Below, piece after piece: positions 1 to 37,640 of a DNA stretch of 64,000 nt; positions within the stretch are counted from its first letter, which is position 1, and each line of letters starts with the position of its first letter. The DNA comes from an uncultured Acidimicrobiales bacterium (GTDB lineage Bacteria; Actinomycetota; Acidimicrobiia; Acidimicrobiales; DATKAS01), in contig CAVSDE010000008.1 in assembly GCA_963726695.1 (NCBI GenBank), forward strand, positions 97,324 through 161,323. The letters run 5' to 3'. Made by a program: the position numbers and the translations under genes. The notes under the pieces were generated by a model that saw nothing but the letters and a program-made list of their open reading frames with translations, was not told where the DNA came from and searched no databases.

Positions 1-1161
1 ACATCGCGAAAGACGCGGGGCTCGAGCTGCCGGCGGGCGCACTCGACTACGTGCTGCGCGTGGGCGCAGGCTCGGCACGCGACACGCTGTCTGCCCTCGA
101 CCAAGTCGTCGCCGCGGGATCGATCCCCGACGACGGACCGTCGGTCGAAGACCTGGTCGACGCCCTCGCCGACCGTGACGCAGCGCGAGCGCTCGCAGGC
201 GTCGCGGCAGCCGTCGCAGCAGGCACCGAGGTGCGCGGCCTCACCGAGCGGCTCATCGCGTGGCTGCGCGACACGTTCCTCGTCGTGATGGCGCCCGATG
301 TCGCCGAGCTGTCCGAGGCCTCCCGTGCTCGAGCCGCTGAGCAAGGCGCTCGCCTCGGCGCTGCCGCGACCGTGCGGGCACTCGAGGTGCTCGGCGCTGC
401 GCTCGTCGAGATGCGTCACGCCACCGACCACGCGCGTGCTGCTCGACGTCGCACTGGTCCGCATCGCGAATCCCGCGCTCGACGACAGCCCGGGCGCGTT
501 GCTCGAACGGATCGAGCGTCTCGAACGATCCGGGCCGCCGGCCGGTGCGCCTCCGTCCGCGGGTGGTGCGACAGCACCGCCATCGACGTCCGCTCCGCAG
601 ACGAACCCGACGACGAGCGCGCCATCGAGCGGTGCACGCGCTGCGCTCGGAAGCCACGCGCGCAAGGCGCCGGCCGAACCGAAGGTCGAAGCACCCGTCG
701 AGCCGCCCGCGCCCGTCGTGCAGGCCGCGACCCCGCCCGCTCTCGTGCCCACGGGTGAGATGCCGTCACGCGACGAGCTCACCATCGCGTGGGCCGACAA
801 CGTGCTCCCTCAGCTCAAGGGCATGGTGAAGGCCTTGTACGCGGCGGGCCGCTTCGTGTCGTCCGACGATGGCGGCGCGGTGCTCGCGCTGCCCACTGCT
901 CCTCACCGCCAGAAGTGCGAGGAGCGACGCAAGGACGTCGAGGCTGCACTCGCCGCCCACTTCGGTCGACCGATCCCGCTGAAGCTCATCGTCGACGGAG
1001 GCGAGGTGGCGCCGGCGTCCGCAGCGGCGACACCGGCCTCGGTCACCGACGACGTCGTCGATCTCGACGAGCTCGTCGACGCGCCCTCCGCACCGGCGAC
1101 ATCGATCGACCGGCTGACGCAAGCGTTCCCAGGAGCCGAGCTCCTCACTGACGAGTCCTGA
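1..1161 (+). CDS. dnaX: DNA polymerase III subunit gamma/tau, C-terminal part (5' truncated, frameshift ~430)
   Basis: GSARDTLSALDQ clamp-loader motif in ORF 51..758. Continues as RVLLDVAL and a Pro/Ala-rich tail ending AFPGAE in ORF 298..1161. Canonical dnaX-ybaB-recR order. Confidence 0.9.
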
Positions 1162-1171
1162 GAGGAGCGCC

Positions 1172-1516
1172 ATGTCCGGCGACGATGACGACTTCATGGG
1201 CAACCTGCTGAAGCAGGCACAGGCCATGCAAGAGCAGATGGCCGCGGCCCAAGCCAGTGCCGCGGCGCAAGAGGTCGAGGGCCAAGCCGGGGGCGGGCGC
1301 GTGAAGATCACCGTCACGGGCGGCCTCGAGTTCAGGTCGGTGCGCATCGACCCTGCGATCGTCGACCTCACCGAGATCGAGCTGCTCGAAGACCTCGTGC
1401 TCGCGGCATTGCACGACGCGGTCGCGAAGGCTCAGCAGCTGCAGAGCCAAGCCCTCGGCGGGCTGGCCGATCTCGGCGGGCTCGGTGGTCTGCTCCCCGG
1501 CGGCGACCCGGGGTGA
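1172..1516 (+). CDS. ybaB: YbaB/EbfC nucleoid-associated protein
   Basis: [12 protein letters not shown]...[17 protein letters not shown]...[11 protein letters not shown]; lies between dnaX and recR. Confidence 0.93.
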
Positions 1517-2118
1517 CCACGTACGCGGGACCGGTGCAGACGCTGATCGACGAGCTCGGTCGCCTCCCTGGCATCGGACCGAAGTCAGCGCAACGCATCG
1601 CGTTCCACCTGTTGAAGCTTCCTGCGGAGGACGCCGCTCGTCTCTCGCGCGCGATCGAGGAGGCGAAGGCGAAGGTCACGTTCTGCACGCGGTGCTTCAA
1701 CGTGTCCGAGGGACCGGAGTGCGGCATCTGCGCGGACTCACGACGCGACACCACCGTGATCTGCGTCGTCGAAGAGCCGCGCGACATCGTCGCCGTCGAG
1801 AAGACCGGCGAGTTCAAGGGGCGGTACCACGTGCTGCAGGGCGCGATCAGCCCGATCGAGGGCGTCGGTCCTGAGCAGCTGCGCGTCAGGGAGCTGCTCA
1901 TGCGGCTCGAGCCCGAGGGCGTGACCGAGGTGATCCTGGCGACCAACCCGAACATCGAGGGCGAGGCCACCGCGATGTATCTCGCTCGGCTGCTCAAGCC
2001 GCTCGGCTTCCGAGTCACTCGCATCGCCAGCGGTCTGCCCGTAGGCGGTGACCTGGAGTACGCCGACGAGGTGACCCTCGGCCGGGCGTTCGAAGGCCGT
2101 CGCGACGTCGACGCTTGA
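1513..2118 (+). CDS. recR: Recombination mediator RecR
   Basis: Hh[12 protein letters not shown], zinc finger CTRC..C..C, Toprim [14 protein letters not shown], and [14 protein letters not shown]. Confidence 0.97.
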
Positions 2119-2135
2119 CGTCGACACCTGACGGG

Positions 2136-2247
2136 AAAAAGCGCTCGGGGTACCGCCTGCTCCGGTACGAGGCGGGCGGACACCCATACCGGCGAGGCAG
2201 TACCCCGAGACACGACAGACCCGAGGGGGGCTGCAGGTCCATCTGTT
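2136..2247 (-). ncRNA. Putative 6C-like small RNA (two hairpins, C-rich loops, U-tail)
   Basis: Minus strand: stem GAUGGACCUG/CGGGUCUGUC with loop CAGCCCCCCU (2214-2243). Long stem CUCGGGGUACUGCCU/AGGCGGUACCCCGAG (2144-2209), then CGCUUUUU. G-U pairs work only on the minus strand. Confidence 0.65.
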
Positions 2248-2253
2248 GCGGTC

Positions 2254-2282
2254 ACGTTACAACAGTGACGAATCCATGACAA
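2254..2282 (-). promoter_or_regulatory. SigA/sigma70-type promoter for the sRNA
   Basis: TTGTCA (2282-2277), 17-nt spacer, TAACGT (2259-2254). Predicted +1 at A2247. Confidence 0.7.
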
Positions 2283-2317
2283 CGAACGGAGGGTGAACGC
2301 CTGCGACCAGGGTGTTT

Positions 2318-3202
2318 CTATCGGCTGACAAGTGGGGGCGGAGCAGGCGTCGGATCCATGGCCTCGGCCACCTCTGCGGTCTCGACCGGCTTGGCGAACC
2401 GCAGCAGTCGGCCGCCGAAGGCGATCGAGCTCACGGCGAACCACGCCCACCCGAGGGCCAGGCCGGCGAGCACGTCGGTCAGCCAGTGCACGCCGAGGAA
2501 CACCCGGCTCGCCGCGATCGCGGTCGCTCCACCCACGGCGACGGCCGCACCGATCGTCTTCGCACGCCGCGAGCGGCCACGGGTGAGGAGAAGCACGAAC
2601 GCCGCGAAGCATGCGGCCGACGCGGTCGCGTGGCCAGACGGGAAGGAGCTGCCCGCGAATCCGGTGAGGCGAAGCACGTCGGGACGCTCGCGCTGCACGC
2701 CCGCCTTGATGAGGTTCGACATCAAGAACTGGCCGCCGACGCAGAGGATCAGGAACCCGATGGGGGCCCACCGCCGCTCTTTGATCAGCTCGTAGCCCGC
2801 GATCGCCACCGCGGCGCCGACGACGAATGCCGTGCCGCCGAACGTCGAGATGTCACGCAGGAAATGCGTCGAGAACGCTGTCGCGTGATCCGCGCCCCAC
2901 CGCGCGAACGATGCGTCCCACGTCGCGAAGCCAGTGTTCGTGTGCACCATCTCGAGCAGCGAGGTGATCGCGATCGTGCCGCCGATGACGAGTGCCAGCG
3001 CGACCGTCAGCGCGAGTCCGGTGAGCGTGGTCGCGTCGAACCGGGTGCGCACCAGCCGCCGAAGGGGTCGGTGCTGATGAACGGTCTCGACGATCGTCGT
3101 GGGAGCGACCGCGGGAGCCTGCACTTTCGGCCACCGGCGCGCGAGCAGGCCGCCGACAAGGGCGCCAACCGCACCGGCTGCAAGCGTTGCGAAGATCACC
3201 AT
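2318..3202 (-). CDS. PAP2-family membrane phosphatase
   Basis: KAGVQRERP, SFPSGH and SRVFLGVHWLTDV motifs; multiple TM segments. Start taken at ATG 3202. Confidence 0.88.
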   Translation of the reverse strand: MVIFATLAAGAVGALVGGLLARRWPKVQAPAVAPTTIVETVHQHRPLRRLVRTRFDATTLTGLALTVALALVIGGTIAITSLLEMVHTNTGFATWDASFARWGADHATAFSTHFLRDISTFGGTAFVVGAAVAIAGYELIKERRWAPIGFLILCVGGQFLMSNLIKAGVQRERPDVLRLTGFAGSSFPSGHATASAACFAAFVLLLTRGRSRRAKTIGAAVAVGGATAIAASRVFLGVHWLTDVLAGLALGWAWFAVSSIAFGGRLLRFAKPVETAEVAEAMDPTPAPPPLVSR

Positions 3203-3245
3203 CGATCGAAGTCTGCCCCGAGTGACGTCTGGGTAAACCGCCGGC

Positions 3246-3992
3246 GTGATCCAACATGCTGATCCCGCCATCGCTCGCACCGAGCAGCCGGCTGAGGCCG
3301 AGCGGTCGACCGAGCCCCGTCGGCTCCCACTTTGGGCGCTTCCGCCCGTGCAGTGGTTATCGATCCTCATCCCCTTCGTGCTTCTCGGTTGGCTGATCAC
3401 CGGTCCGATCGACCTCACGAAGGTCGAGGAGCACACGAACACGTGGTTCGCAGCCCACCGCACCGCCCGTCTCAACGACCTCACGGTGATCCCGACGCGG
3501 CTTGCGAGCACGGAAGGGATCGTGATCATCGCTGGGCTCGCTGCCGTGTGGTTCGTGATCAAGCGGCGGTGGCCGAGCCTGACCCTGCTCGCATGGGCGC
3601 TGACCGCCGAGATCACCATCTTCCTCGCGACGAGCCTCATCGTCGCCCGTCCTCGTCCCGACGTCTTGAAGCTCGACTCGGTGCCGGCGACCTCGAGCTT
3701 CCCGTCAGGACATGTCGCCGCGACGATCGCCCTGTACGGATCGCTGGCTCTGATCGCCACTCTGAGGCACTCGAACGGAGTGAGAGCGATCCTGCTGTGG
3801 GCCTTCGCCTTCCTGGCAACCATGACCGTCGCGTTCGCACGCGTGTATCGCGGCGCACATCACGTCTCCGACGTCATCGCCGGCGCCGCTCTCGGCATCG
3901 TGTGTGTGATCGCAGCGGAGCATCTCGCCTTTCGCGTCGCCGAGTGGCTTCGTGACCGGGGAGACGTCGCCGAGGGAAGCGACTTCGCATGA
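3246..3992 (+). CDS. PAP2-family membrane phosphatase
   Basis: VARPRP, SFPSGH and ARVYRGAHHVSDV motifs. Confidence 0.88.
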   Translation: MIQHADPAIARTEQPAEAERSTEPRRLPLWALPPVQWLSILIPFVLLGWLITGPIDLTKVEEHTNTWFAAHRTARLNDLTVIPTRLASTEGIVIIAGLAAVWFVIKRRWPSLTLLAWALTAEITIFLATSLIVARPRPDVLKLDSVPATSSFPSGHVAATIALYGSLALIATLRHSNGVRAILLWAFAFLATMTVAFARVYRGAHHVSDVIAGAALGIVCVIAAEHLAFRVAEWLRDRGDVAEGSDFA

Positions 3993-4875
3993 AGCGCGTT
4001 GCCGTAGTCGCGCACAGCAAGAAGACCATCGGAGGCGGGCTCACCGAGCTGCGTCGCCGTCTGGACGACCTGGAGATCGAAAGCCCGATGTGGTTCGAGG
4101 TCTCTTCGAGCTCGAAGGCCGGCAAGCGCGCGAGCGAGGCAGCGAAAGAAGGCGCCGAGCTCGTGATCGTGTGGGGCGGAGACGGCAGCGTGCAGCGTTG
4201 CATCGACGCGCTCGCCGGTACCGGCGTGACGCTCGCGATCATGCCCGCCGGCACCGCCAACCTCTTCGCGACGAACCTCGGCATCCCGAGCTCGATCGGT
4301 GACGCCCTCGAGGATCGCGTTCGAGGGTCGACGCCGCGAGCCTTGATACCGGTGTCGTGAACAGCGAGCACTTCGCGGTCATGGCCGGAACCGGCTTCGA
4401 CGCTCGGATGATCGGGATGGTGGACGGCAAGGCCAAGCGTCAGTTCGGTCGCGCCGCTTACATCTGGACGGGGCTCAAGGCGGCGCGGGCGAAGCCGATG
4501 TCGGTGCGGATCGAAGTCGACGGCTCGCCTTGGTTCTCGGGCGATGCCACGTGCCTGCTCGTCGCGAACGTGCCCAAGGTCATCGGTGGGATGAACGTGT
4601 TCCCCGACGCCGACCCGGAGAACGGATCTCTCGAAGTCGGCCTCGTGACGGCTCACGGCCTCCGCCAATGGGCGCAAGCACTGTGGGATGTGGTGCGCGG
4701 CCGAGCCGAGACAGCGCGCTTCGTGCACCGCACGCGTGGACGTGAGATCGACGTCAAGACCAAGGACGCTCACGAGTACGAGCTCGACGGCGGCACACGG
4801 CCCGCGGTCAAGCACCTCCAGTTCTCGATCGAGCCCGACGCGATCGACGTCATGGTCCCGGACGGTGAGCGATGA
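3989..4875 (+). CDS. Diacylglycerol/lipid kinase family (frameshift ~4320-4360)
   Basis: WGGDGSV and PAGTANLFA in ORF 3989..4360; MAGTGFDA and YELDGG in ORF 4357..4875. Confidence 0.88.
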
Positions 4876-5853
4876 GCACCGCCAACCTCGTCCCCGAGAC
4901 GAGAGAGCTCTCGGGCGACGACGCCTTCGAGACCCTCCGTCGCAACGGACGCCGTCACCTGATCGTGGATGCGTTCCAGCGCCTACGCGTGGCGGACGGC
5001 TTCAGCCATGCCCGGTCGCTCGCGTTTCTGAGCGTGCTCGTCGTCGTGCAGGGCACGATCGCCCTCGTCGGCCTCGCAAGCGCGCTGAGCAACACCGCGT
5101 TCAGCGAAGCGGTGGTCTCCCTCACCCGGGGGATCGCACCCGGCCCGACGGGACAGCTGCTCACCGCAGCGGCGAGCCAAGCGCAGCAGGCCGGCAATCG
5201 CCACGAGACCGTGGCGATCGCGCTCGGCCTCGCGGGGTGCCTGTTCACCGCCACGACGTTCCTCGGGCAGTTCGAGCGCGCGCTCAATCGCATCTACGGC
5301 GTCGAGACCGATCGCCCGACCGTGAAGAAGTACGGCTTCGCGTTCCTGCTCGCTCTCGTCGTCGGCGTGCTCCTCATCGCCGCCTTCGCTTCCGTCGCGT
5401 ACGGCGGCATCCACACGGTCTCCTTCGATGGTGGACTCGTCGACACCGCGTGGCAGGCCGCACGATGGCCCCTCGGCCTCGTCCTGGCCGCGGGCGGCCT
5501 CGCTGCTGTCCAAGTGGTCGCCCCGCCGCCAGCAGCCGCGCTGGTCGTGGCTCGTGTTCGGAGCGGCGATCGGCACCTCGCTTTGGCTCGTTTCCACCGT
5601 GCTCCTCGCCGCGTTCTTCCGCTGGAGCTCGACGTTCGGCGAGACCTACGGACCGCTCGCCGGCATCGTCGCCTTGTCGCTGTGGGCGCTGCTGTCATCG
5701 GTCGCATTGCTCTTCGGCGCCGCGGTGAACGCGCAGCTCGAAGCGGTGAGGGCACAGGCGTCCGCGCCGCAAGACACGAAGAAGGTCGCCGAATCGGAAC
5801 CCGAGGCGAACCCCACGACTGACTCAGGAGTGCTCGTCTCCAGTGCACGATGA
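4872..5853 (+). CDS. YihY/BrkB-family membrane protein (frameshift ~5500)
   Basis: ERALNRIYG and TYGPLAGIVALSLW motifs; hydrophobic; split over two ORFs. Confidence 0.82.
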
Positions 5854-26639: not shown

Positions 26640-27191
26640 TCAGGCGCCGACCTGCTCGCCGGTGGGTGACAGCACGTACCAGGCGCCGCCGAGGTCCTGC
26701 CCTTTGGCATCGCCGGGAGCGGTGTCGCTGAGGAACGTGTACAGCAGATGGCCGTTGTAGACGACCTGCTGCGTGCCGTCGGGCTGCGTCGCGACAGAGA
26801 GCTTCGATGCGTCGAGGCCCGGGCCTGCGACCGGGGTACCAGCGGCGACGACCGCAGGCCAGTTCGCCTTGATGCCCGCGGGCACCGCGCTCGTCGTCGA
26901 GGTGCCGTCCGGCACGAAGAGGTACACGGTCATGCCGGCCGAGTTCTCGAGGATCTGCTGACCGATCGTGGCGTTGTCGGCGGCCATCACTGTGGCGCTC
27001 CCCGCGGCGGCCGAACCGGCCGCGGTCGTACCAGCAGAAGATGTCGCCGCCGCGGCTGTCGAGCCAGCGGACGCGGCTGTCGTGCCGGCAGCCGCGGTCG
27101 ATGCCGATGAGCTGCCCGAGTCGTCGCCGCATGCGGCAAGAGCAAGCCCAGCGATCAGGACGACCGCAAGACCGAGAAATCGTTTGGACAC
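26640..27191 (-). CDS. COG4315-type lipoprotein (Yx(FWY)xxD repeat)
   Basis: Lipobox LAAC; GMTVYLFVPD; QVVYNGHLLYTFLSDTAPGDAKGQ. Confidence 0.82.
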   Translation of the reverse strand: MSKRFLGLAVVLIAGLALAACGDDSGSSSASTAAAGTTAASAGSTAAAATSSAGTTAAGSAAAGSATVMAADNATIGQQILENSAGMTVYLFVPDGTSTTSAVPAGIKANWPAVVAAGTPVAGPGLDASKLSVATQPDGTQQVVYNGHLLYTFLSDTAPGDAKGQDLGGAWYVLSPTGEQVGA

Positions 27192-37562: not shown

Positions 37563-37640
37563 CGGGAAGTAGCGCAGCTTGGTTAGCGCGCAGCGTTCGG
37601 GACGCTGAGGCCGCGGGTTCAAATCCCGCCTTCCCGACCA
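37563..37640 (+). tRNA. tRNA-Pro (anticodon CGG)
   Basis: Acceptor CGGGAAG/CTTCCCG, D-arm GCGC/GCGC, anticodon arm CAGCG-TTCGGGA-CGCTG, T-arm GCGGG-TTCAAAT-CCCGC, encoded CCA. Confidence 0.97.

Follow-up and report, generated by a model that had tools for sequence, protein, structure and literature searches.

A putative small RNA gene with its own promoter and C-rich hairpin loops lies convergent with recR in an Acidimicrobiales genome

The window, a 64,000-nt stretch of DNA, belongs to a metagenome-assembled genome (MAG) of 2.52 Mb in 17 contigs that is 58% complete. The genes recR and PAP2 face each other across a gap of 199 nt, and the element described here lies within this gap on the minus strand. 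The assignment of recR (plus strand) and PAP2 (minus strand) as flanking genes, made in an earlier annotation from the letters of the sequence (the first-pass annotation), was confirmed by ORF calling and Pfam searches. All features listed in that annotation were found in the sequence, some of them with coordinates displaced by about one base. The features of the locus are:

1513-2118, plus: recR (Pfam RecR_HhH, RecR_ZnF, Toprim_4 and RecR_C), downstream of the 3' part of dnaX and of ybaB
2136-2140, minus: U5 tract past hairpin 2, an intrinsic-terminator tail
2141-2213, minus: hairpin 2, with a 66-nt core (2144-2209) that three outer pairs extend to 2213-2141
2172-2179, minus: apical motif CCGCCCGC of hairpin 2, here displayed around a 6-nt loop (UCCGCC in the minimum free energy (MFE) fold)
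2214-2243, minus: hairpin 1, with a C-rich loop and 10+2 pairs in the MFE fold
2225-2230, minus: run of exactly six C in hairpin 1
2244-2270, minus: phased pentamers GTCAC-n4-GTAAC-n6-GCAAC, spanning the promoter spacer, the -10 hexamer and the start site, with starts 9 and 11 nt apart
2247 (± 2 nt), minus: predicted transcription start, an A 7 nt past the -10 hexamer, placed by promoter geometry only
2254-2259, minus: -10-like hexamer TAACGT, 17 nt after the -35 hexamer
2277-2282, minus: -35-like hexamer TTGTCA
2318-3000, minus: 3' part of the PAP2 gene, with its stop at 2318 and a true start at about 3000 or beyond

The element is convergent with recR, whose stop codon is 17 nt from the U tract. 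On the other side of the gap, a Pfam search placed PF01569 at residues 358-467 of a 501-aa minus-strand ORF (2318-3823), which is probably over-long because the PAP2 domain occupies these residues only. This ORF overlaps a plus-strand PAP2 ORF (3246-3992), and the two PAP2-family matches thus lie on opposite strands. The sole Rfam or ARAGORN match in the 64-kb window is a tRNA-Pro (CGG) at 37563-37640 on the plus strand.

The minus strand of the gap has a strong potential to form a structured RNA. Positions 2130-2250 fold at -70.1 kcal/mol (z -6.28), a stability reached by none of 200 shuffled sequences. On the plus strand, positions 2119-2250 fold at -61.1 kcal/mol (z -2.40), a stability matched by 3 of 200 shuffled sequences; this recR strand has no T-run after the hairpin. 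The 10-bp stem carrying exactly six Cs in its loop and the 66-nt second hairpin with its apical UCCGCC followed by UUUUU are present as first described. On the minus strand, the GC-rich stem of hairpin 2 runs directly into the U tract, an arrangement characteristic of intrinsic terminators, and hairpin 2 is the probable terminator stem. The choice of the minus strand, originally argued from G-U pairs, gains support from a covariance model of the genus (R1, see below), which scores 123-143 bits on that strand across 11 genomes and matches only the hairpin, at 19-37 bits, on the opposite one.

The promoter-like sequence upstream of hairpin 1 had been called near-consensus. TTGTCA-N17-TAACGT is indeed present, but the term overstates the similarity, as the hexamers match TTGACA and TATAAT at 5/6 and 3/6 positions, respectively. 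A scan of positions 1000-5000 for E. coli-type signals returned neither promoters nor terminators, its criteria being too strict for this promoter and for the bulged stem. The loose sigma-70-type pattern TTGNNN-N16-18-TANNNT occurs only 86 times when this genome is searched on both strands (5.03 Mb), and there are three matches to TTG[TA]CA-N17-TAA[CT]NT, the strict form of the element's promoter; the promoter is therefore unusual in this genome. The phased pentamers that span it could be an operator or a response-regulator array, and may resemble GlnR/MtrA-type boxes. Equal pentamer spacing was read by eye in homologues from other families (G037, G075, G070, G050, G034 and others), and pentamers are found at the equivalent place in loci L086, L093, L098, L105, L114, L117 and L120, their spacing being kept across families. 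In the genus there is also a direct repeat, GTTCAC-n5-GTTCGT (2283-2300, minus strand), that abuts and overlaps the -35 hexamer; its 11-nt spacing is, in our view, reminiscent of OmpR/PhoB-type boxes. Recurrent weak BLAST matches of the segment 2289-2311 in several genomes fall in P450-like coding sequence and are attributed to chance, not to shared regulator boxes.

Conservation was assessed in the genus of the source genome, which is the only one of its family and comprises 11 genomes including the source. All ten other genomes carry the gap at 80-99% identity. The model R1, built from an 11-sequence alignment of the genus (A1), finds exactly one full-length copy in each of the 11 genomes; with one copy per genome, a repeat or mobile element was rejected. 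Mean pairwise identity across the genus genomes reaches 96.6% in hairpin 1, where 27 of 29 positions do not vary, and 93% in the promoter, whose 26 invariant positions out of 31 include both hexamers (identical in 11 of 11 genomes); hairpin 2 plus its tail stands at 88%. It amounts to 85% at the coding end of recR, 79% at that of PAP2 (nine genomes), 56% in the stretch upstream of the -35 hexamer up to the PAP2 stop and 35% in the spacer towards recR. The promoter and hairpin 1 are thus better conserved than the coding ends of either neighbour. In two genomes (G004 and G007) a thiolase gene takes the place of PAP2 and the RNA is kept, homology to the window beginning just upstream of the -35 hexamer. 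The element therefore retains its own promoter independently of the upstream gene, as expected of a stand-alone small RNA (sRNA). These two genomes also have a 2-nt deletion that breaks the frame of a 75-aa ORF (2015-2242, minus strand), and other families have an unrelated 5' domain with no counterpart of this ORF, so that a small protein encoded here was rejected. Of 39 predicted pairs, four show compensatory changes within the genus, and these four belong to hairpin 2; hairpin 1 has none in this alignment because it does not vary. At least four U follow hairpin 2 in 8 of the 11 genomes and none in the other three.

Beyond the genus, DNA downstream of recR was gathered from 57 other families, searched with R1 with filters off and then inspected by reading. 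At 11 of these loci a homologue immediately follows recR in convergent orientation (G051, G026, G070, G037, G044, G075, G072, G034, G021, G063 and, with a diverged loop, G050); one further homologue (G033) is doubtful, and 46 of the 57 loci are without the element. Among the genomes used, G051 and G074 are unpublished. The former contributes one of the 23 sequences in the alignment and model described next and is a counted member, the conclusions being independent of it; the recR locus of the latter is without the element. At E≤0.01, a second covariance model (R2) of the long hairpin alone matched at least 24 of 151 Acidimicrobiales genomes, a lower bound since few candidates were scored per genome and the true members G021 and G037 were missed; one of the matches, in apparent coding sequence of G079, is probably false. 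Under the same regime of few scored candidates per genome, R1 returned from the 151 genomes the genus and a few weak matches only, and R2 gave no match in 145 Actinomycetota genomes outside the order. R2 also matched 6 of 80 metagenome contigs encoding close relatives of RecR, in all six cases convergent with recR and 20-130 nt after it. The exact two-loop pattern, too strict for other families, was found in genome contigs of nine same-genus MAGs, besides one chance match in a Dysosmobacter MAG.

Altogether about 35 examples were collected: 11 from the genus, about 20 from other Acidimicrobiales families and six from metagenomes. The putative family is restricted to the order Acidimicrobiales in the genomes searched. 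At 13 loci from the order-wide search, recR lies within 1.5 kb in ten cases, nine of them convergent and one (G112) co-directional, and is not found within that distance in G068, where it is 20 kb away, and in G130. The genes upstream of the element vary among carriers: a thiolase gene is the commonest, the others being PAP2, NhaA, GGDEF, HATPase_c_2, an F420H2-dependent reductase and a divergent 6PGD-like gene. In many families of the order the thiolase gene ends convergent with recR across a short gap that holds no RNA (L080, L081, L087, L089, L090, L094, L096, L101 and L107); where present, the RNA is often found between the thiolase gene and recR. This distribution suggests that either the thiolase/RNA/recR order is old and the RNA was lost repeatedly, or the RNA was gained at one site.

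The common core of the family consists of the promoter and the long hairpin, hairpin 2 of the window, which is the family-defining module. Alignment of 23 such hairpins with MAFFT (A2), with pairs predicted by RNAalifold, gave 22 consensus pairs, 20 of which show compensatory double changes. The fraction of paired cells is 92.1%, a value that none of 500 shuffled alignments attained (73.8%) and that falls to 36-49% when partners are slid. The hairpins were excised by folding, which favours pairing; the grounds for homology are the loop, the promoter and the position. Covariation across the regions 3' of recR had been proposed in the first-pass annotation as one of the checks: it is extensive in hairpin 2, which thus has the covariation-supported structure looked for in stand-alone sRNAs, and hairpin 1 is invariant in the genus. 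The apical CCGCCCGC is present in 22 of the 23 aligned hairpins and in all six metagenome members, displayed in other families mostly in loops of 14-18 nt. In 21 of the 23 members a TTG(T/A)C-type hexamer within a match to the loose promoter pattern precedes the hairpin. The family promoter reads TTG(T/A)C(A)-N17-TAAYNT, the -10 element TAAYNT being found in most other families, and is followed by (G/A)AYCGCAAC.

The part preceding the long hairpin is less constant. The six-C hairpin 1, invariant within the genus, was not found in the members from other families, and we read it as the genus's version of a variable 5' domain. In 18 of 21 members C outnumbers G in that domain, and CCUCC-like stretches or runs of C, 5' or 3' to the long hairpin, are seen in many members. 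Two members, G072 and the metagenome locus L185, have no domain other than the long hairpin. The first-pass annotation had held that, should the loop and first stem not be conserved in relatives, only a terminator would be left. Both are kept in the genus and absent elsewhere, and what remains in the other families is far more than a terminator. At least four T follow within 14 nt of the hairpin in 8 of the 23 members, the other 15 being without them, and some members have a further terminator-like hairpin downstream. In L104 (G044) and in L120/L144 (G034) an extra hairpin with a long C/U-rich loop is placed 3' of the long hairpin; its loop contains eight Cs in G044 and CCUCCUCCUCC in G034. 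The C-rich module appears to be movable because these two genomes place it after, and not before, the long hairpin.

Comparison with known RNA families gave no assignment. Rfam cmscan of positions 1500-3000 on both strands returned no match of any family, 6C included, at E≤10, nor did 20 loci holding members at E≤1; at the Rfam 15 gathering score the whole window yields only the tRNA. The element is therefore not in Rfam, and its reading as a new sRNA family, one of two offered originally, stands: it is a conserved minus-strand candidate gene for a structured RNA with a promoter and, in this genome, a hairpin followed by U5 as terminator. Bacterial SRP RNA often adjoins dnaX. A match of the SRP model (RF00169) lies elsewhere in the source genome, upstream of dnaX (G000:C8:96586-96684, 66.4 bits), and SRP RNA is also separately present in G008, G072 and G146, so that this identity was rejected for the element. 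The SRP RNA of the source genome is located some 640-740 nt before the first base of the window, its reported strand being the opposite one; the SRP RNA of G072 has the same direction as the operon.

The 6C sRNA (RF01066, gathering score 47 bits), known as B11 or ncRv13660c in M. tuberculosis and as cgb_03605 in C. glutamicum, was the other identity proposed. Published accounts of 6C describe two stem-loops with a conserved cytosine run in each loop (PMC6486639), a SigA/SigB-dependent promoter and, in C. glutamicum, a link to the SOS response (PMC5014011, PMC6789036). Experiments in mycobacteria, as given there, show that the loops L2/L3 bind G-rich sequences of ribosome-binding sites, such as AGGGGGG of panD, independently of a chaperone; the same source reports high-GC Gram-positives to be without Hfq and ProQ (PMC6486639). 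The element resembles 6C (PMC6486639, PMC5014011) in being an actinobacterial stand-alone RNA of about 100 nt with a housekeeping-type promoter and C-rich hairpin loops, for which we propose chaperone-free pairing to ribosome-binding sites. It differs in lacking covariance-model similarity, in having a single, genus-specific six-C loop and a conserved CCGCCCGC loop on a 66-nt stem, and in being tied to recR and restricted to Acidimicrobiales among the genomes searched. The 6C model gave no hit over its cut-off in 31 genomes of the order either, a weak negative because the C. glutamicum control also stayed below it.

C-rich motifs are found in other pairing sRNAs of Gram-positives as well. In the RsaE/RoxS-type sRNAs of Gram-positives, which have an independent promoter and terminator, unpaired C-rich motifs are thought to pair with G-rich Shine-Dalgarno sequences. 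The element differs from them in phylum and architecture, and there is no Rfam match of any kind at the E-value limits given above. Its GC-rich hairpin with U5 between the ends of recR and PAP2 is like that of an intrinsic, possibly bidirectional, terminator. It differs from such a terminator in the conserved promoter ahead of it, the invariant loop and the stem that covaries across families; moreover, many members are without a U tract, and the recR strand has no T-run. Taken together, the candidate is a conserved structured RNA gene with its own promoter, and not only a terminator.

We propose that positions 2136-2282 (minus strand) hold a stand-alone gene of about 110 nt representing a new sRNA family of Acidimicrobiales, 6C-like but distinct from 6C, whose C-rich loops act in trans; our confidence in this reading as a whole is about 0.55. 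Transcription would start near 2247 and end at hairpin 2 and U5, giving a primary transcript of about 110 nt. By the precedent of 6C, the exposed C-rich loops of the RNA may base-pair in trans, without a chaperone, to unpaired G-rich segments of mRNAs, probably at ribosome-binding sites. Two loops would take part in this pairing: CAGCCCCCCU, specific to the genus, and CCGCCCGC, shared throughout the family. Hairpin 2 probably also blocks transcription entering from recR.

Public transcript data and a target scan were examined in this light. Five RNA runs contained 0.17 of the sampled words. In four runs, contigs of relatives over the element are of read length, at a depth of 2-4 and 85-95% alike, too sparse to define ends or strand; at this depth, stretches lacking coverage carry no information. 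The sole contig from a confirmed RNA library (X1, 2205-2352, from a relative) spans the proposed promoter, as would be expected of PAP2 read-through or of contaminating DNA. When both loops were scanned against 4191 crudely called start regions of this 68%-GC genome, duplex energies were no better than those of five shuffled loops each. The start regions of ybaB, recR and dnaX were unremarkable in that scan (percentiles 12-94).

The null result of the duplex scan is what one would find if the sRNA, though independent, worked through a protein, its CCGCCCGC loop on a rigid stem being the site of an RNA-binding protein (for sequestration or as a scaffold) instead of a pairing seed. The loop is kept unaltered by 22 of 23 hairpins with freely varying stems, as would be expected of a sequence-specific protein site, and it is not a plain anti-Shine-Dalgarno sequence because it has G beside C. 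We nevertheless judge this unlikely: no candidate protein is linked in the neighbourhood, where the upstream genes vary, and most members also carry the C/U-rich single-stranded stretches typical of pairing sRNAs. High-GC Gram-positives are, moreover, reported to be without Hfq and ProQ, and 6C functions without a chaperone (PMC6486639). The near-constant association with recR raises another reading, a local one, in which the dnaX-ybaB-recR transcript is regulated or terminated by convergent transcription, with antisense overlap at the 3' end, and by the long hairpin as a two-way roadblock or terminator. The element is convergent with an adjoining recR at 11/11 genus, 11/57 other-family, 9/13 order-search and 6/6 metagenome loci, hairpin 2 is stable when folded as its reverse complement too, and the U tract is near the recR stop. 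Yet a roadblock requires neither a promoter nor an invariant loop, the T-run past the hairpin on the recR strand is missing, and most families of the order have recR without the element. A local role cannot be the whole story because promoter, stem and loop are all kept where there is no convergent overlap (G068, G130 and the co-directional G112), and as a full explanation it seems improbable to us.

The region might, alternatively, be no separate gene: the upstream PAP2 gene could have its 3' UTR and intrinsic terminator here, perhaps giving rise to a 3'-UTR-derived fragment. PAP2 must terminate around the element because it ends at 2318 on the same strand, the RNA-library contig of the relative extends from the end of PAP2 over the promoter as far as 2205, and in G084 the hairpin follows a thiolase gene without a recognisable promoter. 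Against this, the upstream gene is different or divergent in many carriers and the element stays, promoter included; the stretch from the PAP2 stop to the -35 hexamer is far less conserved than the promoter (56% versus 93%), and an 8-nt loop shared across families is not something that terminators keep. A PAP2 3' UTR or terminator alone was on these grounds rejected, and we regard any form of this explanation as very improbable. Least credible of all is a divergent member of 6C. The phylum is the same, one loop has exactly six Cs, the promoter and terminator are its own and the size is similar, but no 6C match was obtained even at E≤10 here or at E≤1 in the 20 member loci, the second loop is CCGCCCGC (with UCCGCC as the loop of hairpin 2) and not a run of C, so that the 6C feature of a cytosine run in each of two loops is absent, and hairpin 1, with its six Cs, is missing or different in other families.

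Acidimicrobiales are abundant actinobacteria of soil, freshwater and marine environments. Among the records listed in literature searches on sRNAs and RNA motifs of Acidimicrobiia and Acidimicrobiales and on recR with sRNAs, there was no description of a regulatory RNA in this order and none of the element. What is presented here is one lineage-restricted putative sRNA family. Its signature of a promoter, a covarying stem and an invariant loop makes it a candidate Rfam entry that could be used for the annotation of MAGs, and it may represent a second example, independent of the first, of sRNAs with C-rich loops among high-GC bacteria that have no Hfq. The persistent linkage to recR raises the testable question of a coupling to replication and repair. 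A bolder version of the proposal, which we advance tentatively and consider doubtful, is that the element forms the order-wide counterpart of 6C at the replication/repair locus ffs-dnaX-ybaB-recR: the invariant CCGCCCGC loop would have one conserved mRNA or protein partner, the C-rich modules of the different lineages, such as the six-C loop of the window, would add more targets, and a regulator binding to the phased GTNAC-like repeats over the promoter would switch synthesis of the RNA.

The two other strict promoter matches of the source genome are found in contigs C5 (about 26825-27173) and C6 (about 115611-115959). One of them precedes an ORF for a Bfd-like (2Fe-2S) ferredoxin-type protein and the other a hemerythrin-like ORF, both named from their translations. 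The Bfd-like ORF is possibly leaderless because it begins almost at the -10 hexamer.
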